Origin: Alphaproteobacteria bacterium | GTDB lineage: Bacteria; Pseudomonadota; Alphaproteobacteria; Bin95 | DNA: 64,000 nucleotides | NCBI GenBank assembly: GCA_963665325.3 | Contig: OZ224045.1 | Location: 2,144,001-2,208,000, forward strand | Direction: 5' to 3' | Shown: piece by piece, positions 4,620 through 24,735 of the stretch | How the letters are laid out: every line of letters starts with the position of its first letter | Position numbering within the stretch: the first letter of the stretch is position 1 | The notes under the pieces: generated by a model | What the model saw: only the letters and a program-made list of their open reading frames with translations | Databases searched by the model: none | Told to the model about the DNA's origin: nothing | Position numbers and translations under genes: made by a program

Positions 4620-5375
4620 ATGCTGAAGATAGACGGCCTCTTCAAGCAGTTCGGCGGCTTCGTGGCCATAAACGATGTCTCCTTCGAGCTCATCGAAGGC
4701 GAGAAGCACGCTATCATCGGACCGAACGGCGCCGGCAAGACGACCTTCTTCAACCTGGTCACGGGCCATTTGCTGCCGGACCGGGGCACTGTCGCTTTCC
4801 AAGGCGACGACATCACCGGCCGGCCGCCGCACCGAATCGTCAAGCTCGGCCTCGCTCGCTCTTTCCAGCGGATCAACATTTATCCGCGCATGTCGGTGTT
4901 CGAGAATGTCCAGGTGGCGCTTATCGCCCGGGAGCGGCGCGAGTTCCGCTTCTTCACGCTCGCCGCGGGACTCTGCGGCCCCGAAACGCGCGCGCTGCTG
5001 GAGCTTGTCAGCCTCGCCGACGAGGCGGAGGAGCTCGCCGGCGAACTCGCCTATGGCAAACAGAAGCAGTTGGAACTTGCCATCGCCCTGGCGGAAAACC
5101 CCCGGGTGCTGCTGCTCGATGAGCCGACCGCCGGCATGTCGCCGAGCGAGACCGAGGAAGCGATCCGGCTGATCCGTGAGATTGCCGACGCGCGTGGCCT
5201 GACGCTGCTGTTCACCGAGCACGACATGACGGTGGTGTTCGGCATCGCCGACCGGATCACGGTTCTGCACCACGGTGAGGTCATCGCGTCGGGAGCGCCG
5301 GAGGCCGTGCGCAGCGATCCGATGGTGCGCCAAGTCTATCTCGGCGACGAGGAGGTGGGGAATGGCGCAGCTTGA
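4620..5375 (+). CDS. LivG-type ABC ATP-binding protein
   Basis: GPNGAGKTT, LLLDEPTAG, EHDM. Confidence 0.92.
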   Translation: MLKIDGLFKQFGGFVAINDVSFELIEGEKHAIIGPNGAGKTTFFNLVTGHLLPDRGTVAFQGDDITGRPPHRIVKLGLARSFQRINIYPRMSVFENVQVALIARERREFRFFTLAAGLCGPETRALLELVSLADEAEELAGELAYGKQKQLELAIALAENPRVLLLDEPTAGMSPSETEEAIRLIREIADARGLTLLFTEHDMTVVFGIADRITVLHHGEVIASGAPEAVRSDPMVRQVYLGDEEVGNGAA

Positions 5376-6069
5376 AGCCAGGAACCTGCACACCTCCTAT
5401 GGGCTCTCACGAGTGCTGTTCGGTGTCTCCTTCGAGGTCGAGCAGGGCTCCTGCATCGCCCTGATCGGGCGCAATGGAGTCGGCAAGACCACCACCATGC
5501 GCTCGCTTATCGGCCTGACGCCGCCCTCCGAAGGCGAGGTGGTCTGGGAAGGCCGCCAGATCTCCGGGTTCGCCCCGCATACCGTTGCCAAGCTGGGCAT
5601 CGGCTTCGTGCCCGAGGACCGGCGCATTTTCCCGGAGCTTACCGTGTGGGAGAACCTCGACATTGCGCGCCGGCCTGCAGAGCCGGGGCGGCAGGCCTGG
5701 GGCGAGGACGAAGTGTTCGACCTGTTCCCCGATCTCAGGGATATCCAGTCGCGGGCGGGCGGCGTGCTTTCGGGCGGCCAGCAGCAGATGCTCACCATCG
5801 CCCGCTCGCTGATGGGTAATCCGCGGCTGCTGCTGCTCGACGAGCCGTCGGAGGGTCTGGCCCCGCGCGTCGTGGAGACGCTCCGCGAGCGCGTGCGGAC
5901 GCTCAAGGAAAGCGGCCTTTCGATCATTCTGGCGGAACAGAATCTCGGTTTCGTGCTGGCGCTTTCGGACATGTGCCATATCATGGAGAAGGGCGAGATC
6001 GTTTATTCCGGCACGCCCGGCCATCTGCGCGAGAACCGCGATGTGCTCGACAGGCATCTGACGCTTTGA
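5362..6069 (+). CDS. LivF-type ABC ATP-binding protein
   Basis: GRNGVGKTT, LSGGQQQ, LLDEPSEGL; start moved to ATG 5362 behind GGAGG. Confidence 0.92.
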   Translation: MAQLEARNLHTSYGLSRVLFGVSFEVEQGSCIALIGRNGVGKTTTMRSLIGLTPPSEGEVVWEGRQISGFAPHTVAKLGIGFVPEDRRIFPELTVWENLDIARRPAEPGRQAWGEDEVFDLFPDLRDIQSRAGGVLSGGQQQMLTIARSLMGNPRLLLLDEPSEGLAPRVVETLRERVRTLKESGLSIILAEQNLGFVLALSDMCHIMEKGEIVYSGTPGHLRENRDVLDRHLTL

Positions 6070-6860
6070 AGGAAGCGGAAGTTTTTCGCGACGAGGGCGT
6101 CGCCGTTTTGCGCGGCGTGCTCGACGCTGCATGGCTCGACCGGTTGGCCGAGGCGGTGGCCGCCAACATGGCATCGCCGGGGCCCTACGGACGCGACCAT
6201 GCCGAGCCGGGGCAGGGCAGCTATTTCGGCGACTATGTGAATTGGCATCGCTTCCCGGCCTATCTGGAGGTCGGGCGCGAGGGGCCGCTCGGTCGCCTCG
6301 CCGCGGCGCTCACCGGGGCCGAGCGGGTGCAGTTCTTCCACGAGCATGTGCTGGTGAAGGAGCCGGGGACCTCGCAGCCGACGCCCTGGCACCAGGACAT
6401 GCCCTATTACTGCATGTCCGGCGCGATGACGGTGAGCTTCTGGGTGCCGCTCGACCCGGTCCGCGCGGAAGTCTGCCCGCATTTCCTGGCCGGCAGCCAC
6501 CGCTCGCGCACCGCCTGGCTGCCGCGCCGCTTCAAGACCATGGCGGCGCTGGAGGGCGACACGAGCGAATACGAGCCATTCCCCGACATCGACGAGGCGG
6601 CGCAGGCAGAGGACATCCGCAGCTTCGACCTGGAGCCGGGCGACATTGTGGCGTTCGACTTCCACACCCTGCACAACGCCCCGCCCAACCGCGCGGCCAC
6701 GCGCCGCCGGGCGGTCAGCCTGCGCTATGTCGGCGAGGACGCTCGCTATCTCGACCGCCCCCACGCCGTCTCGCCGCCCTTCCCCGACCTCGGCCTTTGC
6801 GCCGCGCCGGGCGAACCGCTGCCGGACGACTGGTTTCCCGTGGTCTGGGAGCAGGGCTGA
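6066..6860 (+). CDS. PhyH-family Fe(II)/2OG dioxygenase
   Basis: TPWHQD, distal H in TLHNA, RRAVSLRY; probable TTG start overlapping the upstream stop. Confidence 0.85.
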   Translation: MKEAEVFRDEGVAVLRGVLDAAWLDRLAEAVAANMASPGPYGRDHAEPGQGSYFGDYVNWHRFPAYLEVGREGPLGRLAAALTGAERVQFFHEHVLVKEPGTSQPTPWHQDMPYYCMSGAMTVSFWVPLDPVRAEVCPHFLAGSHRSRTAWLPRRFKTMAALEGDTSEYEPFPDIDEAAQAEDIRSFDLEPGDIVAFDFHTLHNAPPNRAATRRRAVSLRYVGEDARYLDRPHAVSPPFPDLGLCAAPGEPLPDDWFPVVWEQG

Positions 6861-6899
6861 GAAAAGTCCGCATCCGCACAGGACCTCGGGAGGCGAGCG

Positions 6900-7856
6900 A
6901 TGACCAGGCTGATTTCGGAGGAGAGCAGGGGCGTCTTCGTCATCATGGCGACCCCGTTCGCCGATGACGGAGCGCTCGACCTGCGAAGCGCGGACCGGCT
7001 GGTCGAGTTCTGCCTGGAGGAAGGCGTTTACGGGTTCACGCTGCTTGGCGTCATGGGCGAAGCGCCGAAACTCTCGCTTGAGGAGCAGGCCGAGTTCACG
7101 GACCATGTCCTGAAGCGCATTGACGGCCGGGTTCCGGTGATCGTCGGGGTGAGCAATCCCGGGATGGACAATCTGGTGGCGTTGTCGAAGAACGCGATGG
7201 ACCGGGGCGCGGGCGGTGTGATGGTCGCCGGCATGCCGGGGCTGAAGACCGATGAGCAGGTGGAGACCTACTTCCAGGCCGTCGGGGACCGGCTCGGCGA
7301 AGAGATTCCGGTCTGCCTGCAGGACTACCCGCCGACCACCACGGTGTTCATCTCGGTCCCCGTGGTGAACAGGCTGATCGCGAAGCTGCCCCAGCTAAAG
7401 ATGTTCAAGCATGAGGACTGCCCCGGCCATCGCAAGCTGACCCGCCTGAGGGAAGCGCCGGCAACCGACGGCGTGCGGCGGGTGAGCATCCTGACCGGCA
7501 ATAACGGCCTCTATGTGCCGCAGGAGCTTGCGCGGGGCGCCGACGGCATCATGACCGGCTTCGCTTTTACGGGCATGCTGGTCGAGGTCTATCGCCTGTT
7601 CGAGAGCGGCAGGGCGGAGGAAGCGGAGGACCTGTTCGACCTCTATCTGCCGGTGTTGAGGCACGAGGCGCAGTTCGGGGTCGGGTTGGCGCTCCGCAAG
7701 GAGGTGCTGCGCCGACGGGGCGCCATAGCATCCGCCAGAGCCCGCGACCCGGGCCCGAGCATGAACGCGAGGGACCACGCCGAACTGGACGGCCTGCTCG
7801 AACGTCTCAAGGCAAAGCTGGCCGCCGCAGGCCGCCCGCTCCCCGCCGGCATTTAG
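6900..7856 (+). CDS. Dihydrodipicolinate synthase/NAL-family aldolase or dehydratase
   Basis: ATPF, LGVMGE, QDYP, Schiff-base Lys candidate in FKHED. Confidence 0.85.
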   Translation: MTRLISEESRGVFVIMATPFADDGALDLRSADRLVEFCLEEGVYGFTLLGVMGEAPKLSLEEQAEFTDHVLKRIDGRVPVIVGVSNPGMDNLVALSKNAMDRGAGGVMVAGMPGLKTDEQVETYFQAVGDRLGEEIPVCLQDYPPTTTVFISVPVVNRLIAKLPQLKMFKHEDCPGHRKLTRLREAPATDGVRRVSILTGNNGLYVPQELARGADGIMTGFAFTGMLVEVYRLFESGRAEEAEDLFDLYLPVLRHEAQFGVGLALRKEVLRRRGAIASARARDPGPSMNARDHAELDGLLERLKAKLAAAGRPLPAGI

Positions 7857-7928
7857 GCCGAGAGTATCGGCGCGGAAAAGTCCGAATCCGGGTGGACGGG
7901 CGGCAGCCGGGGCAGTAGGCCGGCAAGC

Positions 7929-8630
7929 ATGAGCGATGCAATCGACAGGCTGGATTGGCCGGCGTTGGGGGCGGACCTGTTGGAACGGGGCCATGCGCAG
8001 GCGGAGGACGTGCTTTCCCGGGATGCGTGCACGGCGTTGCGGGCCTGCTGGGAGCGGGACGAACTGTTCCGCCGGCGCATCGTCATGGCGCGGCATGGCT
8101 ATGGGGAAGGCGCCTACGCCTATTTCGCCGACCCGCTGCCGGAGGCGGTGCAGGCGCTGAGGGAGGGGCTCTACCGGCATCTCGCGCCGCTCGCCAACGA
8201 GGCCATGACCCGGCTCGGCAGGGCGGCGCGCTATCCGGCCGACCACGCGGCCTACCGGGCCGAGTGCCATGCGGCGGGACAGACCAAGCCGACGCCCCTG
8301 CTGCTGCGCTACGCGGAAGGGGGCTACAATCGCCTGCACCGCGACCTTTACGGCGAGCTCGCCTTCCCGTTCCAGGCGACCTTCCTGCTGTCGGAACCCG
8401 GTCTCGACTATACCGGCGGCGAGTTCCTGCTGGTCGAGAACAGGATGCGGATGCAGGCCAGGGGTGAGGCCGTGCCTCTGGAGCGGGGCGATATGGTCAT
8501 CTTTCCCGTGCGCGACCGGCCGGTGGCAGGCAAGCGCGGCCATGTCCGGGCGGAGATGCGCCACGGCGTTTCCCGGGTCCGTTCGGGCGAACGCTTCACG
8601 CTCGGCATCATCTTCCACGACGCCGCCTAA
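7929..8630 (+). CDS. 2OG-Fe(II) oxygenase (DUF2086-like)
   Basis: HGYGEGAYAYF, LHRDLYGE, RHGVS, RFTLGIIFHDA. Confidence 0.88.
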   Translation: MSDAIDRLDWPALGADLLERGHAQAEDVLSRDACTALRACWERDELFRRRIVMARHGYGEGAYAYFADPLPEAVQALREGLYRHLAPLANEAMTRLGRAARYPADHAAYRAECHAAGQTKPTPLLLRYAEGGYNRLHRDLYGELAFPFQATFLLSEPGLDYTGGEFLLVENRMRMQARGEAVPLERGDMVIFPVRDRPVAGKRGHVRAEMRHGVSRVRSGERFTLGIIFHDAA

Positions 8631-8649: not shown

Positions 8650-9579
8650 TCATGGCTGCCGTTGCACGGGGCTGACCGTATCCGGCACGATTCCAGCGAT
8701 GATGTTCGCCAGGTTCTCGACCAGAGTCATGCGAGGATAGCCTTTCCGGTGCACCAGCCGGATCGTCCGCCCGGCAGTTCCGCTTCGTTCGCGGCGGATG
8801 GCGATGCCGGCATCCGCAGCCCAGCCGCCCGCCAGGCTCATGGCAGGGACCAGCGTAATGCCGTCGCCCGAGCCGACGAGCGCCAGGATCGTGGGCAGGC
8901 TCGTCTTCTGCGTCCTGGGACCGGACATGTCGAAGGGGCGTGACCGGTCCAGCTTGCACGCTTCGAAGACCTGGTCTCTCAGGCAATGGCCGTCGGATAG
9001 CAGCAGCAGTTCCTCCGGCTCGATCTGCTCGATATCGACAGTATCGTGGCGGCTCAACGGGTGCTCCTCGGGAACCGCCACCCAGAATGGCTCGTCATAA
9101 AGGACGACTTCCGAGAGGTTCGCGCGGGTCGGGGTCGTGGCGAGGATGGCAAGGTCGAGGCGGCCATCGGCCAGCTGCTGTTCCAGGTGGTCGGTGAAGT
9201 CCTCGATCAACTCCAGGCCCACCTCCGGCAGGCGGTGCTTCATGGCCGGCAACAACAACGGCGTCAGATACGGGCAGACCGTCGGAGGCATGCCAATCGT
9301 GCAGTCGCCGACGAGCGGGTCCTTGTGGGCCGCCGCGATCTTCTCCAGTTCCTCCACCTCGCGCAGAATTTCCCGGGCGCGTTCCACGATCCGGTCGCCG
9401 ATCGCCGTCACTCGCACATATCGCTTGGTACGCTCGAACACCTTCACGCCGAGTCGTTCCTCGAGCTTGCGCAACTGGCCGCTCAGGGCGGGCTGGCTGG
9501 CGTTGCAACGCTCCGCCGCCCGGCCGAAATGCAACTCCTCGGCGACAGCGACCAGATACTCGAGATCGCGGGTGTTCAT
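8650..9579 (-). CDS. oxyR: H2O2-sensing LysR regulator OxyR
   Basis: LysR HTH; GHCLRDQVFEAC keeps both redox cysteines; divergent from katG. Confidence 0.92.
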   Translation of the reverse strand: MNTRDLEYLVAVAEELHFGRAAERCNASQPALSGQLRKLEERLGVKVFERTKRYVRVTAIGDRIVERAREILREVEELEKIAAAHKDPLVGDCTIGMPPTVCPYLTPLLLPAMKHRLPEVGLELIEDFTDHLEQQLADGRLDLAILATTPTRANLSEVVLYDEPFWVAVPEEHPLSRHDTVDIEQIEPEELLLLSDGHCLRDQVFEACKLDRSRPFDMSGPRTQKTSLPTILALVGSGDGITLVPAMSLAGGWAADAGIAIRRERSGTAGRTIRLVHRKGYPRMTLVENLANIIAGIVPDTVSPVQRQP

Positions 9580-9801: not shown

Positions 9802-12024
<2,223 letters not shown>

Positions 12025-12043
12025 CCTTCGCGAAGGTCCACGT

Positions 12044-12078
12044 AAGGGGCCCCCGGGCAATCCGCCCGGGGGCCTTTT
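12044..12078 (+). terminator. Rho-independent terminator of katG
   Basis: 11-bp stem GGCCCCCGGGC/GCCCGGGGGCC followed by TTTT. Confidence 0.8.
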
Positions 12079-12172
12079 GCTTGGGAAGGACAATCGTGCG
12101 GGGAGGCGCTACAGGCCGCGACAACAGCAATGAACACGCGTTAGACTGGTGAAGGACAGGAGGGTTCGAACG

Positions 12173-13255
12173 ATGGGATATCCCGATGCGCCTGTGCCGA
12201 TCCGCGCCGACATTCTGGCGGCCCATGCCCGCGCCTGGGCGTGGATCGCGGCTCCTGGCAACTGGCTGACCGGCGCCGAGCGGGTTGCCATAGCGGCTGA
12301 GACCCGCCATGCGCTGGACTGCCAGCTCTGTGCGGCGCGTAAGGAGGCGCTCTCGCCCGAGGCGGTCGCCGGCGAGCATGACGGACCGGGCATTCTCGAG
12401 CCGCCAATGGTGGAAATCGTCCACCGTATCGTTACGGATCCCGCGCGCCTGACACGTCGCTGGTTCCAGGCGCGGCAGGCCGAGGGCATCGAGGACACGC
12501 GCTATGTGGAGACGGTAGGCGTCGCGGCAGTCACCGTTTCGCTCGACACCTTCGCCCGCTCGATGGGCGTGGCGCCGCGCCGGCTGCCGGAGCCTGGGCC
12601 CGGAGAGCCGTCAGGCTATCGGCCTGCCTCGGCGCGCATGGAGGAGGCCTGGGTGCCGCTGATCGTGCATGGCGAGGAAAGCGGCGCCGAGGCAGACCTT
12701 TATTCGGGTTCGAAGGGCGCCTACATCCTCATGGCGCTCTCCTTGGTGCCACAGGCCAAGCGGGCATTTTTCGATCTCGTCGAGACGCAATATCTACCGG
12801 GCCGCTGGATGCGCATATTCGACGTCGAACACCGCGCCATCAGCCACGCGCAGATCGAGTTTCTGGCCGCAAGGATTTCCGCGCTCAACCAATGCGTTTA
12901 CTGAACCACCAGCCATGCGCTGCTGCTCCGTGAGAGCAGCCGGACAACAGGCAAGAGCTATGATCTGGACGCAATCGTAAACGGCGGCGGCGGCGGGGTC
13001 GCGGCGGGCGAGGAACTCGCGGCGTTCGCCGAGGCCGTTGCCGGGGACGCCGATATGGCCGCAGCCATATCGGCGCTGCGGCGCGCGGTCGGGGATGACG
13101 GCTGGGTGGATGCGGCGGGCGTGGCTGCAACCTTCAACGCCATCGACCGGGTTGCGGACGCGACCGGCATTCCGCTCGAGCCCCGCAAGGCGGAGGTGAG
13201 CGCCGATTTCCGGGGTGCGCTCGAAATCGACGACTGGGCCGAAGCGCGCGGGTAG
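12173..13255 (+). CDS. AhpD-like (alkylhydroperoxidase-related) selenoprotein, Sec at TGA 12902-12904 (codon 244 of 360)
   Basis: RBS AGGAGG 12158-12163; frame stays open 116 codons past the TGA and joins ORF 13055..13255; motif SALNQCVYUTTSH matches AhpD CxxCxxxH; SECIS-like hairpin follows. Confidence 0.88.
12922..12940 (+). promoter_or_regulatory. Candidate bacterial SECIS hairpin
   Basis: GCTGCTC-CGTGA-GAGCAGC: 7-bp stem, G then U at loop positions 2-3, 24 nt between the UGA and the loop. Confidence 0.75.
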
Positions 13256-13267
13256 GGAGGGACTTTC

Positions 13268-14638
13268 ATGATCGAACGCAAGCGCGACGATGAGTTCGTC
13301 GTCGTCTCCAATGGGATGCTGGGCTACGGCTTTCGCGAAGAATCGCTCCGGGACGCCGTGGAGGCTGGCGTGGACCTCATAGCATGCGATGCGGGGTCGA
13401 GCGATCCGGGGCCGTACTATCTGGGCACGGGCAAGCCCTTTGTCGGCGACGCGATGATCCTGCGCGACCTGCGCCTGCTGGTGCAGGCGGGCGCGGATGC
13501 GGGCGTGCCGCTTGTCATCGGCTCCGCCGGTGGGGCAGGCGGCGACGGGCAGGTGGACCACCTGCTGGCGCTGCTGCGCCGGGTGCTGGAGGAACTGGGA
13601 CTCGACCGGAAGGTGGCCGTGCTGCGCTCGGAGCTCGACCGGGAGACGGTGCGCGGAGCGGTCGAGGACGGGCGCGTTCGCACCTTCGAGACCGGCATGG
13701 CGCTAACGGTCGAGGATGTCGATGCCGCCGCCCATATCGTGGCGCAGGTCGGCCCGGAATCCTATTTCCGGGCGCTCGCCGACGGGCCGGACATCCTGGT
13801 CGTTGGCCGGGCCTGGGACGTGTCCAACATCGCCGCGCTGCCGCTGATGCAGGGCCATGACCGCGGCCTCGCGCTGCATATGGGCAAGATCCTCGAATGT
13901 GGCAGCCTGGCCGCGCGCCCGACCGGCGGCGGCGACCTCATTCTCGGGCGGCTCCGGGACGACCATTTCATTGTCGAGCCGACCCATCCGGAAAAGGCCT
14001 GCACCGAGGCCTCCGTCTCGGCGCACACCTTCTACGAGAAATCGGACCCGGTGATGTTGGCGGGGCCGGGCGGCTCGGTCGATCTGCGCCGGACACGGTT
14101 CGACCAGATCGATCCGCGTCGCATCCGCGTCTCGGGCAGCGCCTTCCAGGAGGCCGAACGGTACACGGTCAAACTGGAGGGCGCCCGGCTCGCGGGGCAC
14201 CGGGCATTGACGGTCGGCGGTGCGCGCGACCCGGCCTTCATCCGTTCCATCGACGCGATCCAGCAAGCTGTCAGGGACAAGATCCACGAGACCCAGTCCG
14301 GCTTCATCGACCCCTCGCAATACAGCATTACCTTCCATCGCTACGGCTTGGACGGGGTAATGGGCGCCTGGGAGCCGAACCGGCAGGCTGCACACGAGAT
14401 CGGCATCCTGATCGATGTCGTGGCGGAAACCCCGGAGATTGCCGAAGCGGTCTGCGGCCTTGCACGTTCGACCATCCTGCATGTGCCCTTCGAGGGCAGG
14501 CGGGCGACGGCGGGCAACATCGCCTTCCCGTTTTCGCCGGCGGAGATTCCGGCCGGGCCAGTCTACGAATTCAACATCTATCACCTGATGGAAATCGGCG
14601 ACCCGGAGAGCTTCGGACGGCTCGAATGGCTGCAATGA
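13268..14638 (+). CDS. AtuA-family (DUF1446-like) protein
   Basis: GMLGYGF, DAGSSDPGPYYLG, HMGKILECG, AHTFYEKSDP, TAGNIAFPFSP. Confidence 0.85.
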   Translation: MIERKRDDEFVVVSNGMLGYGFREESLRDAVEAGVDLIACDAGSSDPGPYYLGTGKPFVGDAMILRDLRLLVQAGADAGVPLVIGSAGGAGGDGQVDHLLALLRRVLEELGLDRKVAVLRSELDRETVRGAVEDGRVRTFETGMALTVEDVDAAAHIVAQVGPESYFRALADGPDILVVGRAWDVSNIAALPLMQGHDRGLALHMGKILECGSLAARPTGGGDLILGRLRDDHFIVEPTHPEKACTEASVSAHTFYEKSDPVMLAGPGGSVDLRRTRFDQIDPRRIRVSGSAFQEAERYTVKLEGARLAGHRALTVGGARDPAFIRSIDAIQQAVRDKIHETQSGFIDPSQYSITFHRYGLDGVMGAWEPNRQAAHEIGILIDVVAETPEIAEAVCGLARSTILHVPFEGRRATAGNIAFPFSPAEIPAGPVYEFNIYHLMEIGDPESFGRLEWLQ

Positions 14639-14949
14639 GGACGCTCGGGGAGCTCGCGGAGGTCATCCGGTCCAAGAATGCGGGCCCCTTCATCGTGACC
14701 TTCGACATCCTGTTCGACACCGAGGAGACGTTCGAGGCGGTCCGGTCGGCGGGAATGCTGAGCCGCCAGGCGGTCTGCAAGCTCTACGGCGTCTCCGACA
14801 ACGAGCTGCTCGGGTTCGACTTCTATCCCTTCGCGCGGGCGGTCAAGTTCTCGCTCCGGCGCCCCGTCGGCTCCGGCGGCCCGCGCGACGCGGATGTCTA
14901 TGGCGCGCAGCAGCACGCCCCCCTGCTCGATCTCGCCGTCCTGCCCTGA
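14635..14949 (+). CDS. DUF4387-like protein
   Basis: IRSKNAGPF, DVYGAQQHAPLL; ATGA overlap with the upstream gene. Confidence 0.85.
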   Translation: MRTLGELAEVIRSKNAGPFIVTFDILFDTEETFEAVRSAGMLSRQAVCKLYGVSDNELLGFDFYPFARAVKFSLRRPVGSGGPRDADVYGAQQHAPLLDLAVLP

Positions 14950-14952
14950 CCG

Positions 14953-15795
14953 TTACCTGGCGGCGATGGCTTCGCTGGCGGCCCAGAGGCGTTCCTGGTC
15001 TTCGACTGAGAGCGAGGCGGGAGAGGAGGGGACTTCCTTGCCGTCGGAGAAGTAGCGCCCGCTGACGCCCTCCAGCGCCGGGTCGGAGGCGAGCCGGATG
15101 TTGAGTTCCGCGCCTTCCTCGACGCCGATGGCGCCGCTGACCCGGAACGCCAGTTTCAGCCCATTGCGGAACAGCCAGCCATTGTTGCTGCCGAAACGGC
15201 TCGCCACCAGGCCCGGATGCAGCGCGTTGACCGTGACCGGGCTGCCCTCCAGCCGCCGCGCCAGCGCATAGGCGAACATCACATTGGCAAGCTTGGAACG
15301 GCTGTAGGCGGTCCGCACGCTGTAGCGGCGCTCGCATTGCAGGTCGTCGAAGTCCAGTTCGGCCCGCCGGTGGGCAATGGAGGCGACGACGACGATGCGC
15401 CCCGCCTCCGCCGCTCTCAGCCGATTTAGCAGCAGGTTGGTGAGCAGGAAATAGCTCATGTGGTTGAGGGCGAATGTGGCTTCGAGGCCGTCCGCCGTCA
15501 CCTGCCGCCGCGAGAAGATGGCGCCGGCATTGTTCACCAGCACATCCAGCCGTTCGGTCGACTCGGCGATGTTGCGGGCGAGACGGCGGCTTTCGTCCAG
15601 AAGCGAGAGGTCGGCACGTTCGAAGCGGACCTCTGCGCCAGGCACCTCTGTCCGGATCGCCCGCGCCGCCTGCTCGCCGCGCTGCGGGTTGCGGCCGACA
15701 ATGGTGACGGCCGCACCCTTCTCTGCAAGCACGCGGGCGGTGACGAAACCGATACCGGTCGTGCCTCCGGTGACGAGTGCGGTCTTGCCCTGCAT
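14953..15795 (-). CDS. SDR oxidoreductase (retinol dehydrogenase-like)
   Basis: TGGTTGIG, NNAG, YSRSK, LHPG. Confidence 0.9.
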   Translation of the reverse strand: MQGKTALVTGGTTGIGFVTARVLAEKGAAVTIVGRNPQRGEQAARAIRTEVPGAEVRFERADLSLLDESRRLARNIAESTERLDVLVNNAGAIFSRRQVTADGLEATFALNHMSYFLLTNLLLNRLRAAEAGRIVVVASIAHRRAELDFDDLQCERRYSVRTAYSRSKLANVMFAYALARRLEGSPVTVNALHPGLVASRFGSNNGWLFRNGLKLAFRVSGAIGVEEGAELNIRLASDPALEGVSGRYFSDGKEVPSSPASLSVEDQERLWAASEAIAAR

Positions 15796-15845
15796 GGAAC
15801 CGGAGTTTACAGGCTGCAGGCGCAATCGGGAACGAGGAGGCCGTC

Positions 15846-17105
15846 ATGGTGCTGGAACGCGTCGCGGCAGGCGTGGACGAAGCCGGGCTCTGGAAGATGC
15901 ATGAGGATATGGCGCGCTTCGGGGCGACGGCCAAGGGCGGCGTGTGCCGCGAGGCGCTGACGCCGGAAGACTTCGAGGCGCGCCGCCTTTTTGCCGAATG
16001 GGGCAGGGATGCCGGCTTTTCGCTGGCGGTGGACGCCATTGGCAACATGTTCCTGCGCCGCGAGGGGCTGGACCCGGACCTGCTGCCCGTAACGACCGGC
16101 TCGCATCTGGATTCCCAGCCGACGGGCGGGCGGTTCGACGGCAGTTTCGGCGTGCTGGCCGGGCTGGAGGCGCTGTTCGCTCTGGAGCGCGCGGGCGTGC
16201 GGACCCGCGCGCCGGTAGAGGTCGTCAACTGGACCAATGAAGAGGGCGGGCGCTTCGTGCCGGGCGTGATGGGTTCGGGCGTCTATGCGGACCCGCCGAC
16301 CCTGCAGACCATGCTGGAGGTGCGCGACAAGACGGGCGCGCGGCTCGGCGACGAGCTCGGAAAGCTGGGTCCGCTGCTGTCCTCTGTCGGCCCCGTGGGC
16401 GAGCGGGCGCTGGCCGCGCCGATGGGCGCCTTCATCGAAGGCCATATCGAGCAGGCGCCTCGCCTGGAGGAGACCGGGAACACCATCGGCGTCGTCACAG
16501 GCATCCAGGGCACGCGCAAGTTCCAGGTCGAGGTAATGGGCGAGGAGGCCCATGCCGGAACGACCCCTCGGCGGCGGCGCAAAGACGCCGTGCTGGCGGC
16601 CGCCTGCATGGTCCAGGCGCTGCACCGGATGATGGAGGACGCCGACGACCTGCTGCGGTTCACCATCGGGGCGTTCGAGGCATTCCCGGGCGCGCCTTCC
16701 GTCGTGCCGGGGCGGGTGCGCTTCTCCATCGATTTCCGACATCCGGACGACGACCTCCGGGCCCGGCTGGGCGACGCCATCCAGCCGCTCTGCGAGGCGC
16801 TGGCGGGGCCGTGCGGCGTGAGCATCGAGGAGCCGCAGGCCGCGTCCTCCGTCGATTTCCACGGGGCGGCGATCGACGCCGTGCGCCATGCCGTCGAAGT
16901 GGTGGGCGCGTCCCACATGGACCTCTATTCCGGCGCCGGCCACGATGCGCGCAACATGGCCATGCTCTGCCCTTCGGCCATGGTGTTCGTGCCGTGCGAA
17001 AAGGGGATCAGCCACAATGAGGCGGAAAACGCCAAACCCCAAGACCTGGCCGAAGGCGCCAGAGTCATCGCGGTTGCGCTCGCCGAGCTTGCCGGTGCGG
17101 AGTGA
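15846..17105 (+). CDS. M20 Zn amidohydrolase (N-carbamoyl-amino acid/allantoate hydrolase family)
   Basis: GSHLDSQP, NEEG, HIEQ, HAGTTP, GAGHDA, GISHNEAE. Confidence 0.92.
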   Translation: MVLERVAAGVDEAGLWKMHEDMARFGATAKGGVCREALTPEDFEARRLFAEWGRDAGFSLAVDAIGNMFLRREGLDPDLLPVTTGSHLDSQPTGGRFDGSFGVLAGLEALFALERAGVRTRAPVEVVNWTNEEGGRFVPGVMGSGVYADPPTLQTMLEVRDKTGARLGDELGKLGPLLSSVGPVGERALAAPMGAFIEGHIEQAPRLEETGNTIGVVTGIQGTRKFQVEVMGEEAHAGTTPRRRRKDAVLAAACMVQALHRMMEDADDLLRFTIGAFEAFPGAPSVVPGRVRFSIDFRHPDDDLRARLGDAIQPLCEALAGPCGVSIEEPQAASSVDFHGAAIDAVRHAVEVVGASHMDLYSGAGHDARNMAMLCPSAMVFVPCEKGISHNEAENAKPQDLAEGARVIAVALAELAGAE

Positions 17106-17168
17106 CGCTTGTCGCGGGCCGTGTCGCGCTGACCTGAAGAACCGATTCGAAGCACCGGGGTGCACGTC

Positions 17169-18089
17169 ATGATTCAACAAGCCAATGAGCGGGTCGCCTA
17201 TCACAATGGCGAAATCAAGCCCGAGAGCCGGGTGCTCGTGTCGTTCCGCGACCGCGGGTTCAAGTACGGCGAGGCGGTATTCGACACGGCACGAACCGTC
17301 CGGCACAAGCCGTTCAGGCTTGAGGAGCATATCGACCGGCTCTACCGCTCGATGCGCTATCTCCAGATCGACTCGGGCCTCGGCAAGGGCGAGATGCTGT
17401 CCATCTCCCATGAGGTGCTGGAGCGCAACCTGCACCTGATCGGTCCGGACGAGGATTACTGGCTGTTCCAGCGGGTGAGCCCCGGTGTCTCGGATCCTTT
17501 TCTGAGCGACGGAAAGGCCAGGCCCACGGTCATCGTCGAGTGCACGCCGCTGCCGCTTCAGGCCCGTGCGCCGCTCTACCGGGATGGCGTTCGCGTGCAG
17601 ATACCGGCGACCCGGCGCACGCCGCCCGACGCGGTCAGCCCGAGGGCCAAGACCCAGAACTACATCAACCTCCAGATCGCGGACCGCGAGGTGCGCGCCC
17701 AGGACCCGCAAGCCTGGGCCATCCTTCTCGACCATGACGGCAATCTCGCGGAAGGGCTCGGCAGCAACATCTTCTTCGTGCGCGATGGCGAGCTGTTTAC
17801 CCCGCGGGCCCGGTTCGTGCTGCCGGGCATCAGCCGCGAAACGGTGATCGAGCTGGCGGAGGCGGAAGGCATCGCCGTGCACGAGACCGACCTCGACCTC
17901 TTCGATGCGTTCACCAGCGACGAATGCTTCCTGACATCGACGAGCCTGTGCATGGTGCCGGTGGCGTCGGTCAACGGCCGCTCCATCGGCGGGGGCAGCG
18001 TGCCCGGGCCGGTGACGGCGCGCCTCATGGAAGCCTACAAGCGGCTGCTCGATTTCGACTTCGTGGCGCAATACACGGACAAGCTGTAG
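17169..18089 (+). CDS. Class IV aminotransferase (BCAT/DAAT-like)
   Basis: DRGFKYGEAVF, HIDRL, KTQNY, EGLGSNIF, LPGISR. Confidence 0.9.
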   Translation: MIQQANERVAYHNGEIKPESRVLVSFRDRGFKYGEAVFDTARTVRHKPFRLEEHIDRLYRSMRYLQIDSGLGKGEMLSISHEVLERNLHLIGPDEDYWLFQRVSPGVSDPFLSDGKARPTVIVECTPLPLQARAPLYRDGVRVQIPATRRTPPDAVSPRAKTQNYINLQIADREVRAQDPQAWAILLDHDGNLAEGLGSNIFFVRDGELFTPRARFVLPGISRETVIELAEAEGIAVHETDLDLFDAFTSDECFLTSTSLCMVPVASVNGRSIGGGSVPGPVTARLMEAYKRLLDFDFVAQYTDKL

Positions 18090-18097
18090 CGCGCGGG

Positions 18098-18142
18098 TGG
18101 CGACCCCGGCAGGACTCGAACCTGCGACCTACGGATTAGGAA
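18098..18142 (-). repeat. att site: 45-bp duplicate of the tRNA-Arg 3' half
   Basis: Identical to 24659..24703 (TGGCGACCCCGGCAGGACTCGAACCTGCGACCTACGGATTAGGAA). Confidence 0.95.
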
Positions 18143-18304
18143 ACTGTAATTTATCGTTTACCGATACATACCGACCCTTACCGGTGTGTCACATACTCCA
18201 CTGATTTCATGCGATAATTTCGGCATATATTTTACCTTGGCTTACCGGAGCGCCCCGGCTTATACTGGCGAAATGCTGACACGGTGCTGACACGGGAGGC
18301 TGAC

Positions 18305-19503
18305 ATGGCATTGACCGAACGCCAAATCAGGGACGCCAGGCCGGGACCGAAAACCCGGATTGAGTGGGATTCGACCGTCGCGGGATTCGGCCTTCGCGTG
18401 ACCGCCAAGGGTGCGCTGGCGTCATCCTGAACTATCGAATCGACGGCCGGGAGCGCCGCGTCACACTTGGCCGGCCCGCCGAAATGAACCTGAAAGAAGC
18501 CCGTCGCCGGGCTGGCGAAATGCTGGCGGGCGTCCGCGACGGCGCGGACCCGCTGGCGGAACGCCAAGCCCGCCGGGACGCGCCGACCGTGGCGGAGGGC
18601 GTCGAGAGATTCTTCAAGGAATATGCTCCGCGCCGCATGAACGATGGCCGCCTGTCTGCGCGGACGCTGCGAGACTATCGGCAACAATGGGGCAGGGTTG
18701 TGAAGGCGGCTCCCGCTCTCGGCGACAAGAAGATTGCCGCCGTGACGCGGCATGACATAGAGCGCGCCGTCGCCAAACGCGCACCTGTCCAGCGCAATCG
18801 CTCGCTGGCCTTCCTGTCGCGGCTGTTCAATCTCTTCGAGGCGTGGGAACTCCGGCCGCAGCACTCTAACCCGACGCGCCACATTGAGAAGGCGCGGGAG
18901 GAACCGCGCGACCGGACCCTTGCGCCGTCCGAACTGGCGGCGCTGGCCGATGCGTTGGCAGTAGAGGCGGAAGCCCGCCCGGCGGCCGTCGCGGCTATCC
19001 GAATTGCAGCCGTGACCGGCTTGCGCATCGGCGAAGTACTGCGCATCCGCTGGCAGGATGTGGATTTCGAGGCGGGCCGCTTGACCATGCCGGAGACGAA
19101 GACGGGCCGGAGAGTGCATGACTTGCCAGCCGCCGCGCTCGCTATCTTGGCGGACCAGCCGCACATAAACGAATGGGCGTTCACAAACGGGCGGAACGCG
19201 CCGGCAGGCTACCAGCGGACGCGAGACGCCTTCGCGCAATCTGCGAAGCGTGCCGGGCTGGAAGATGTCCGGCTCCACGACTTGCGCCGCACAGTTATGA
19301 CAAACGCGGCGGCAGCGGGAGTCGGAACGCACATTCTCCGAGACCTTCTAGGCCATAAGACAACTGCGATGGCCGACCGCTATGTGCGATCCGTAGGCAA
19401 TCCCGTACGGGAGGCGCGGGAGCAAGTGGGCGCGACCATGGCGGCAATGATGGCCGGCAAGACGGCGGAGGTTGTGCCGCTCCGGGGGCGGCGCAACCCT
19501 TAG
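18305..19503 (+). pseudogene. Tyrosine integrase with a single frameshift near 18422
   Basis: RBS + ATG 18305 gives MALTERQIRDARPGPKTRIEWDSTVAGFGLRVTAKGA, then stop at 18428; the other frame continues ILNYRIDGRERRVTLG...TGLRIGE...HDLRR...LLGH...Y. Confidence 0.85.
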
Positions 19504-24658: not shown

Positions 24659-24735
24659 TGGCGACCCCGGCAGGACTCGAACCTGCGACCTACGGATTAG
24701 GAATCCGTCGCTCTATCCGGCTGAGCTACGGGGCC
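24659..24735 (-). tRNA. tRNA-Arg(CCT)
   Basis: GGCCCCG acceptor stem, anticodon arm ACGGA-TTCCTAA-TCCGT, T-loop TTCGAGT, encoded CCA; 77 nt. Confidence 0.96.

Follow-up and report, generated by a model that had tools for sequence, protein, structure and literature searches.

The question raised by positions 12173-13255 of the alphaproteobacterial DNA analysed here (64,000 nucleotides of contig OZ224045.1, which as a whole we call the window) is whether an in-frame TGA ends an AhpD-like gene or is read as selenocysteine (Sec). Our answer is that these positions are very probably one gene, encoding a 360-residue selenoprotein of the family NF041238 with Sec at position 244, and that a hairpin would direct the decoding of the UGA and the product would act as an AhpD-type redox enzyme. 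Gene structure, family membership, the correspondence of TGA and cysteine among homologues, hairpin conservation, the Sec machinery and the fold were worked out in silico; the catalytic cycle and the partner of the protein we infer. The features of the gene are listed here.

12158..12163, plus strand: Shine-Dalgarno-like AGGAGG, 9 nucleotides 5' of the ATG at 12173
12173..13255, plus strand: coding sequence of the AhpD-related selenoprotein, 360 residues, Sec codon 244, stop TAG at 13253-13255
12320..12331, plus strand: N-terminal C50-Q-L-C53; both cysteines and R56 are invariant in an alignment of 19 sequences
12857..12916, plus strand: active-site segment E229-x11-C241-V-Y-U244-T-T-S-H248, with invariant residues and the spacing of the AhpD relay
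12902..12904, plus strand: UGA read as Sec, codon 244; the homologues have TGA or Cys in this column

A preliminary description of this locus had stated that the frame stays open past ...SALNQCVY-TGA to a TAG 12 nucleotides before the next gene, and the sequence agrees: the TGA at 12902-12904 is followed by 116 open codons up to the TAG at 13253-13255. The histidine at +4 from the TGA (His248 in C241-V-Y-U244-T-T-S-H248) and the N-terminal CQLC, both named in that description, can be read directly in the translation. The 12 bases GGAGGGACTTTC between the TAG and the ATG at 13268 of the next gene contain the Shine-Dalgarno-like GGAGGG, and the start methionine is the same as in the aligned homologues of the same paralogue type from loci L022 and L043 (MGYPD and MGFPD). 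The openness of the downstream frame is not significant by itself, as 265 of the 2059 stop-to-stop segments (12.9%) in this window of 66% G+C are at least 116 codons long. We regard the read-through frame as more than a product of chance because the TGA column and the sequence flanking it are conserved.

This conservation was followed in a six-frame search of 61 genomes, that is the window's genome and 60 relatives, with the NF041238 hidden Markov model (HMM). The search gave 55 matches above the cut-off. Of these, 53 span the profile, each interrupted by a single in-frame TGA and free of further stops, and two are partial, one with a single TGA and one with a single TAA. An even, class-wide sample of 301 genomes yielded 21 matches in 14 genomes, all 21 likewise with one TGA. 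Genes were extracted from the 31 loci returned by the 61-genome search. In all 31 the TGA lies within C-x-Y-U-T-x-[ST]-H at one and the same alignment column and is followed by 114-127 further codons, and a scan of one genome per species added 80 loci, with the TGA in that column in 81 of 81 copies. Mean pairwise amino acid identity among the 31 loci is 0.591 upstream and 0.591 downstream of the TGA. Differences at first, second and third codon positions amount to 0.28, 0.27 and 0.52 before the TGA and to 0.25, 0.27 and 0.49 after it, so that on both sides third positions are about twice as variable as first and second ones. We interpret this substitution pattern as that of translated sequence on either side of the TGA. 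Homologues with TGA or Cys at codon 244, and conservation on both sides of it, were what the preliminary description had suggested looking for, and both were found.

The cysteine forms and the state of the public databases emerged from searches that covered the 120 closest proteins of a collection of 5.8 billion and the 150 best representatives at 50% clustering. Among the 120 closest proteins, 119 end exactly before the TGA; one of them (P0002, 243 residues, 100% identical) is encoded on a contig of 2,567,574 bases and ends at the TGA as well. The sole full-length protein of this set, P0053, has Cys at the Sec position (CFYCTSVH) and is 45% identical over 358 residues. In the set of 150 representatives, 104 proteins terminate at C-x-[YFW], another 24 extend to full length and have Cys in place of Sec, and the other 22 are fragments or variants. 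The preliminary description had held that standard gene callers split this gene, and their predictions do end at the TGA. Because these stop at the TGA, most entries of the NF041238 family in databases lack the catalytic Sec, the histidine and a third of the protein, which calls for caution in annotation.

The genome to which the window belongs (5.58 Mb in 5 contigs, with an estimated completeness of 100%) contains the machinery for Sec insertion. We found selA (535 bits), the adjoining selB (442 bits) and selD (271 bits), all above their cut-offs, and a tRNA-Sec of 72.6 bits with anticodon TCA (ARAGORN); all four genes selA, selB, selC and selD, whose presence the preliminary description had proposed to examine, are accordingly accounted for above cut-off. 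The genetic code is not reassigned, since TGA is the normal stop of 7 of 13 neighbouring genes in the window. Within the class-wide sample selA occurs in 39 of 301 genomes overall and in 14 of the 14 that are positive for NF041238. In the selD gene of the window's genome, an open reading frame (ORF) for 720 residues (G000:C1, L010:334-2496), a pyridine nucleotide-disulfide oxidoreductase domain precedes the SelD part (PF07992, then AIRS and AIRS_C); the gene is similar to the Ndh-SelD fusions in the available portions of the Global Ocean Sampling (GOS) paper (PMC2398784).

A structure that could direct the decoding of the UGA lies immediately downstream of it.

12923..12939, plus strand: candidate bacterial selenocysteine insertion sequence (SECIS), a stem of 6 base pairs with a 5-nucleotide loop CGUGA, beginning 18 nucleotides after the UGA

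The arms of the stem are CUGCUC (12923-12928) and GAGCAG (12934-12939), and an extra G-C pair between 12922 and 12940 is possible in the window. The element was compared with the consensus geometry of bacterial SECIS elements: it is a hairpin shortly downstream of the UGA with a G in its apical loop. Over 86 distinct sequences 93.0% of the cells pair, a share that falls to 35-58% if the 3' arm is shifted along the sequence. At pair 22/38 the combination is CG in 67 sequences, UG in 14, GC in 4 and another combination in 1; pair 23/37 is UG in 63, UA in 21, CG in 1 and another in 1; pair 24/36 is GC in 83 and GU in 3. In the loop, C28 and G29 are invariant. The coding sequence points to the same place. 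Out of 102 conserved columns with four- or six-fold degenerate codons, only four use a single codon in all sequences with the conserved residue (29-31 of the 31), and these lie 2 to 9 codons past the UGA (T+2 ACC, L+7 CTG, L+8 CTC and R+9 CGT). In the 31 Sec forms L+8 is CTC and R+9 is CGT without exception, and L+7 is CTG in 30. The residues LLR at +7 to +9 recur in only 1 of the 24 full-length Cys forms, which fits a constraint on the RNA rather than on the protein in the Sec forms.

Contigs assembled from other data sets likewise cover the codon. Two from RNA libraries bridge the TGA, namely X16 record 5 (12867-13067) and X20 record 13 (12784-12956); the pieces of X17 are identical to those of X16 and were counted once. 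Positions 13111-14120 are uncovered by the contigs of three RNA runs, which are uninformative on the operon structure. A DNA contig from another study (X5 record 15) extends over 12000-14792 with 71 differences and carries the selenoprotein gene. None of the three outcomes that the preliminary description had considered fatal to its proposal was found, be it homologues lacking downstream conservation, a genome lacking selABCD, or reads with TGC or TGT. A deeper contig from one sponge metagenome run (X5 record 16) matches the window only at 12263-12282 and at 12899-12919, the latter around the UGA; it probably represents a diverged paralogue or relative that has kept its nucleotide sequence at the Sec codon.

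Two other accounts of the TGA have to be weighed against decoding as Sec. Were it a true stop, the product would have 243 residues, and what follows in frame would have to be explained as a relic or as a small gene of its own. The public gene callers would then be right in ending nearly all of the closest proteins there, P0002 included, and an open stretch of 116 codons is not rare by chance in this window. This account is contradicted by the downstream codons, which are as conserved as the upstream part and show a coding pattern of substitution, by the family HMM and the AhpD structures, which span the TGA, and by the existence of full-length Cys forms. Moreover, the window sequence has no in-frame start between the TGA and the ATG at 13055, and the invariant T245 and H248, the latter being the catalytic histidine, could therefore not be translated separately. 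We regard a true stop as extremely improbable. Reading of the UGA by a near-cognate tRNA (Trp or Cys), or under a reassigned code, would dispense with the Sec pathway altogether, and in-silico data do not distinguish which residue is inserted. Against it stand the termination of neighbouring genes at TGA, the complete Sec machinery, the restriction of TGA-containing members to selA-positive genomes, the synonymous constraint in a hairpin at the expected place, and the homologues, in which Cys and not Trp aligns with codon 244. We give this possibility equally little credence and retain the reading as Sec.

The identity of the protein follows from its match to NF041238 of NCBIfam (AhpD_rel_CFYUT, 'alkylhydroperoxidase-related (seleno)protein', type equivalog). 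The read-through protein reaches 456.1 bits (E 8.9e-137, cut-off 175) over positions 1-356 of the 357 of the profile; in the six-frame search of the window's genome the same copy, with its one TGA, scores 447.4 bits. This full-length match bears out the earlier view that a single AhpD-like selenoprotein of 360 residues has Sec in place of the second cysteine in CxxCxxxH. The motif C-x-Y-U/C-T of the family is present as C241-V-Y-U244-T245. The window copy agrees with the family in the CxxU motif, in a length of ~357 residues and in having a single Sec, and there is no defining difference between them. The window copy has C-V-Y-U-T instead of C-F-Y-U-T, and it heads a probable operon with AtuA-like and DUF4387 genes, of which we found no mention for the family in the portions of the literature available. 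A search of the window's genome with TIGR01926 gave nothing above its cut-off; its rows are the two NF041238 copies of this genome and one weak match on contig C4.

The family has been reported before. A table in the available portion of a 2026 review (PMC13188914) includes NF041238 as the selenoprotein 'hypothetical protein 1' and cites its reference 59, which we take to be the 2005 paper on the Sargasso Sea selenoproteome (PMC1088965). There, in the text as far as available, hypothetical protein 1 comprises four sequences with a conserved CXXU, and no functional evidence is given. AhpD-like selenoproteins with CxxU that belong to COG2128 occur commonly in marine metagenomes, and GOS contains 299 such sequences (PMC2398784, in part). 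Nothing sets the gene apart within its family, which is curated as one of selenoproteins and has been in print since 2005, and as such it is already known; the suspicion in the preliminary description that the family might not be new was well founded. Since NF041238 is curated and was reported as a selenoprotein earlier, the Sec reading is not new either, and as a discovery the locus matters little. What it offers are leads for experiments on the family, namely the double AhpD fold, whose two CxxC/U sites are homologous to each other, the recurring adjacency to a peroxiredoxin-like (Prx-like) selenoprotein gene and to sel genes, and the genus-conserved operon with AtuA-like and DUF4387 genes.

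An AlphaFold2 model calculated from the alignment of 19 sequences is all-helical, with a predicted local distance difference test (pLDDT) score of 92.9 and a predicted template modelling (pTM) score of 0.93. By sequence, residues ~185-340 match AhpD-type structures (6k40 with E 8.5e-16, and also 2oyo, 3c1l, 2pfx and 2prr). The whole model comes closest to human Sestrin2 (5cuf_A; Z 16.5, root-mean-square deviation 3.5, 235 residues aligned, model 1-334; VIA-align), followed by Bmp8 (6ohi, Z 13.1), 2pfx (Z 12.5), 3lvy (Z 12.4), 2gmy (Z 11.1) and 1gu9 (Z 7.6), values to be read with the caveat that helical models reach Z ~13-14 by arrangement alone. Foldseek found nothing in the PDB at E <=0.001, its best match being 6k40 (E 4.1e-3). 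The profile of the N-terminal half (1-170) aligns with that of the C-terminal half (171-360) over 125 columns in hhalign, at E 1.3e-4 and with a homology probability of only 54%, which tempers the argument, and places C50/C53 on C241/U244. Because of this alignment we consider the protein most likely to be a fused, diverged AhpD-like pair.

Such a chain would contain the AhpD/CMD helical fold twice, through internal duplication, and is predicted to form a pseudo-dimer arranged like Sestrin2. The model shares with Sestrin2 the pseudo-symmetric arrangement of two AhpD-like helical domains in one chain, whereas the catalytic Cys of Sestrin2 lies in the N-terminal domain and the active motif of the window protein in the C-terminal one, with CxxC/U kept in both domains. 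A sestrin family was not found for the read-through protein, CMD being the only Pfam family at E up to 1. The available part of PMC11429811 discusses bacterial proteins, among them E. coli YciW, that have two AhpD domains arranged as in Sestrin. From COG2128/TIGR01926 proteins (~190 residues; 6k40, 2oyo, 2pfx, 3c1l, 2prr), a group to which the AhpD-like CxxU selenoproteins of marine metagenomes belong (PMC1088965 and PMC2398784, both in part), the window protein differs by its doubled length and by a further AhpD-like domain at the N-terminus of the same chain; its C-terminal half is homologous to them and the pattern N-x-C-x-Y-C/U-x-x-S-H is common to both. The debrominase Bmp8 is a thiol enzyme with the CMD fold (174 residues aligned, model 93-347, identity 14%), and we interpret this likeness as one of shared fold only, because the Z value is similar to those of other AhpD-like structures.

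The invariant residues of the 19-sequence alignment include C50, C53, R56, E229, C241, Y243, position 244, T245 and H248. The relay of Mycobacterium tuberculosis AhpD consists of Glu118, Cys130, Cys133 and His137 (PMC3141380, in the portion available), and the spacing E-x11-C-x2-U-x3-H of the window protein equals that of these four residues. The C-terminal domain is thus predicted from the model to hold a complete AhpD-type relay, E229...C241-x-x-U244-x-x-x-H248. Further correspondence with M. tuberculosis AhpD (1gu9, 1knc), a reductant of the peroxiredoxin AhpC, lies in the fold; the differences are a Tyr for His132, as in PA0269 (PMC3141380, same portion), Sec for Cys133, a score far below the TIGR00777 cut-off and the lack of an adjacent ahpC in the window.

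We envisage the following mechanism. SelB with Sec-tRNA(Sec) would be recruited by the conserved hairpin, and UGA244 would be decoded as Sec. In M. tuberculosis AhpD the attacking cysteine is Cys133, the second of the CxxC pair, and U244, which occupies this position, would be the attacking nucleophile here. Its selenolate may attack an oxidised substrate, which could be a peroxide or else a peroxiredoxin-like partner in its sulfenate or disulfide form. Resolution of the adduct by C241 would give an intramolecular selenenylsulfide that is subsequently re-reduced, while E229 and H248 could serve as the proton relay. The invariant C50xxC53 is a candidate for a second redox centre at which the selenenylsulfide is re-reduced. 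The likeliest class of partner would be a Prx-like W-U-P-x-C selenoprotein, represented in this genome by the gene at G000:C3:64349-64813.

Genes of this class stand beside the family elsewhere. A gene of the AhpC/TSA family with an in-frame TGA of its own (FYRGHW-U-P-[FYH]-C) adjoins the NF041238 gene in 8 of 80 loci. In seven of these it follows 20-90 nucleotides downstream on the same strand, and in one it is convergent. In two genomes of one genus (G086 and G258) the two genes are divergent neighbours ~185 nucleotides apart. The orthologue in the window's genome (G000:C3:64349-64813, also L155:1501-1965) is unlinked to the window gene; it is 54% identical, scores 69.6 bits to PF00578 and has one TGA in FYRGHW-U-PYC, and to judge from its sequence it is a further selenoprotein gene of this genome. 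The 39 selA-positive genomes divide into 9 with both families, 5 with NF041238 only, 4 with the Prx-like family only and 21 with neither; the odds ratio for co-occurrence is 9.45, and the Fisher p of 0.004 overstates the association because close kin are included (G086/G258 in one genus, G109/G278 in another). In one Rhodospirillaceae metagenome-assembled genome (MAG; L105:3001-5712) two NF041238 copies in tandem precede the Prx-like gene, so that three UGA-Sec genes stand in a row. The GOS paper (PMC2398784), in its available portions, notes a single read on which the selenoprotein genes Prx-like 1 and AhpD-like 2 are neighbours. An NF041238 gene, a Prx-like Sec gene or both lie ~2.1-6.5 kb from selA on G258:C3, G086:C39, G194:C19, G109:C1, G321:C11 and G317:C4, and this placement suggests that the Sec machinery and the NF041238 and Prx-like selenoprotein genes travel together.

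Several observations weigh against our reading or restrict its scope. No peroxiredoxin gene adjoins the selenoprotein gene in the window, nor in 72 of the 80 loci. As for the hairpin, the local fold of 12896-12975 does not exceed shuffles in stability (z -0.40), for which reason the hairpin was assessed by conservation. Rfam has no SECIS family at 12700-13300 at E up to 10, the only match being ctRNA_pGA1 with 18.1 bits against 45. Three of the six core pairs never vary over the 86 sequences, a double change is seen in one core pair only (22/38, 4 of 86 sequences), and positions 21 and 39, a possible seventh pair, fail to pair in 40 of 86. In the shuffle control 0 of 500 shuffles reached the observed pairing, a result that overstates the case for related sequences. 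Strand, level and transcript ends cannot be read from the RNA contigs, which may contain DNA; for X5 record 15, none of the 40 differences listed lies at 12902-12904, with 44 more outside that listing. Matches to the established AhpD families stay below threshold: Pfam PF02627 (CMD) reaches 18.1 bits against a gathering threshold of 23 over residues 220-255, TIGR01926 42 against 81.8 over residues 214-336 only, and TIGR00777 (AhpD) 23.8 against 191.95. We found no experiment that shows selenium in the window's protein or in any family member. Finally, a katG gene upstream is found in only 2 of 12 loci of the same genus, besides the window and L044. Linkage to KatG and OxyR was considered as a functional clue and rejected on this distribution.

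The genes around the selenoprotein gene are as follows.

4620-8630, before the OxyR-like gene: two ABC ATPase genes of branched-chain type, together with genes of the PhyH, DHDPS and 2OG-Fe(II) oxygenase families
8650-9579, minus strand: OxyR-like LysR gene
9814-12024: katG, 1280 bits to NF011635
12046..12078, plus strand: terminator-like hairpin 3' of katG, an 11-base-pair G+C stem (12048-12058/12064-12074), loop and TTTT
13268..14638, plus strand: AtuA-like gene, 12 nucleotides downstream of the selenoprotein gene, PF07287 69.4 bits
14626..14949, plus strand: DUF4387 gene, PF14330 115.6 bits, start at ATG 14626 or 14635
14953-15825, minus strand: SDR gene, convergent
15777-17105: M20 carbamoylase-type amidase gene
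17160-18089: class IV aminotransferase gene
18364-19503: tyrosine integrase gene, just downstream of the aminotransferase gene

The terminator-like hairpin sits between katG and the selenoprotein gene. A consensus scan did not flag it because its T run is short, and in the DNA contig of a related strain the listed differences within it (12059-12063) are confined to the loop. No promoter-like site was found upstream of the selenoprotein gene in a promoter and terminator scan of 11900-18400. The AtuA-like gene is probably part of the same operon as the selenoprotein gene, and the ATG at 14635 of the DUF4387 gene overlaps the AtuA-like stop as ATGA. Neither of the two proteins has a match in NCBIfam. 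Twelve loci of the same genus were compared. They had been picked from the 61-genome search because their matches have the length usual for this paralogue, and their identity to the window's protein in its N-terminal part is 76-91%. In 11 of them the AtuA-like, DUF4387, M20 amidase and aminotransferase genes follow the window-type paralogue downstream.

This arrangement raises the possibility that the window paralogue is the selenol redox component of a pathway with the AtuA-like and DUF4387 proteins, the M20 amidase and the aminotransferase, and acts on a small molecule or on a pathway enzyme rather than in peroxide defence or as a partner of AhpC. The 12-nucleotide gap with its GGAGGG, the overlap of the next two genes and the constancy of the gene order within the genus are in favour of such a role. 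It is likewise in keeping with the hydantoinase B gene that adjoins the other paralogue of this genome, and with the N-formylglutamate amidohydrolase, arginase-family and M20 genes that adjoin other family members, a loose theme of nitrogen-compound catabolism; a CMD-fold thiol enzyme that acts on a small molecule, the debrominase Bmp8, is moreover among the fold matches. Yet the linkage to AtuA and DUF4387 holds for the window paralogue in one genus only and for 0 of 28 loci of the other type, clustering of the 80 loci gave no AtuA/DUF4387 cluster beyond 8 same-genus loci, and neighbours elsewhere are highly varied. DUF4387 appears in no paper within the library searched, and the active site is a complete AhpD-type relay. 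We consider this pathway role unlikely and prefer an AhpD-type redox enzyme. A still bolder proposal, by analogy with Bmp8, is that the window paralogue was recruited from peroxide defence as the selenol redox subunit of an AtuA-like/DUF4387 small-molecule enzyme system, where it might carry out a reductive step such as dehalogenation or desulfuration. This is a long shot; if true, Sec on the AhpD fold would have been put to a new catalytic use, and there would be a first functional handle on AtuA and DUF4387.

The second NF041238 paralogue of the window's genome (G000:C1:1044137-1045186; L021, L064) scores 457.7 bits, has one TGA and is 48-58% identical to the window copy; it is the one followed by the hydantoinase B gene. 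Two or more NF041238 matches are present in most genomes of the genus that are listed in the 61-genome search. In other genera the neighbours of NF041238 genes vary widely. Clustering of the flanking ORFs of the 80 loci revealed no universal neighbour, the top clusters being the gene itself and its shadow frames; the largest clusters of real neighbours are the L126 type with hydantoinase B (19), an AMP-binding enzyme (13) and the Prx-like gene (8).

Farther from the gene, the region at 4620-8630 has the gene content of an amino-acid or small-molecule catabolic neighbourhood. On the other side, a tRNA-Arg (CCT) gene at 24659-24735 lies ~5 kb past the integrase gene, and an integrated element may have its edge in this region. 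All of the closest genome records are MAGs from uncultured Alphaproteobacteria, and 9 of the 22 public runs listed for positions 12000-15000 of the window (holders or additions) are labelled as sponge metagenomes.

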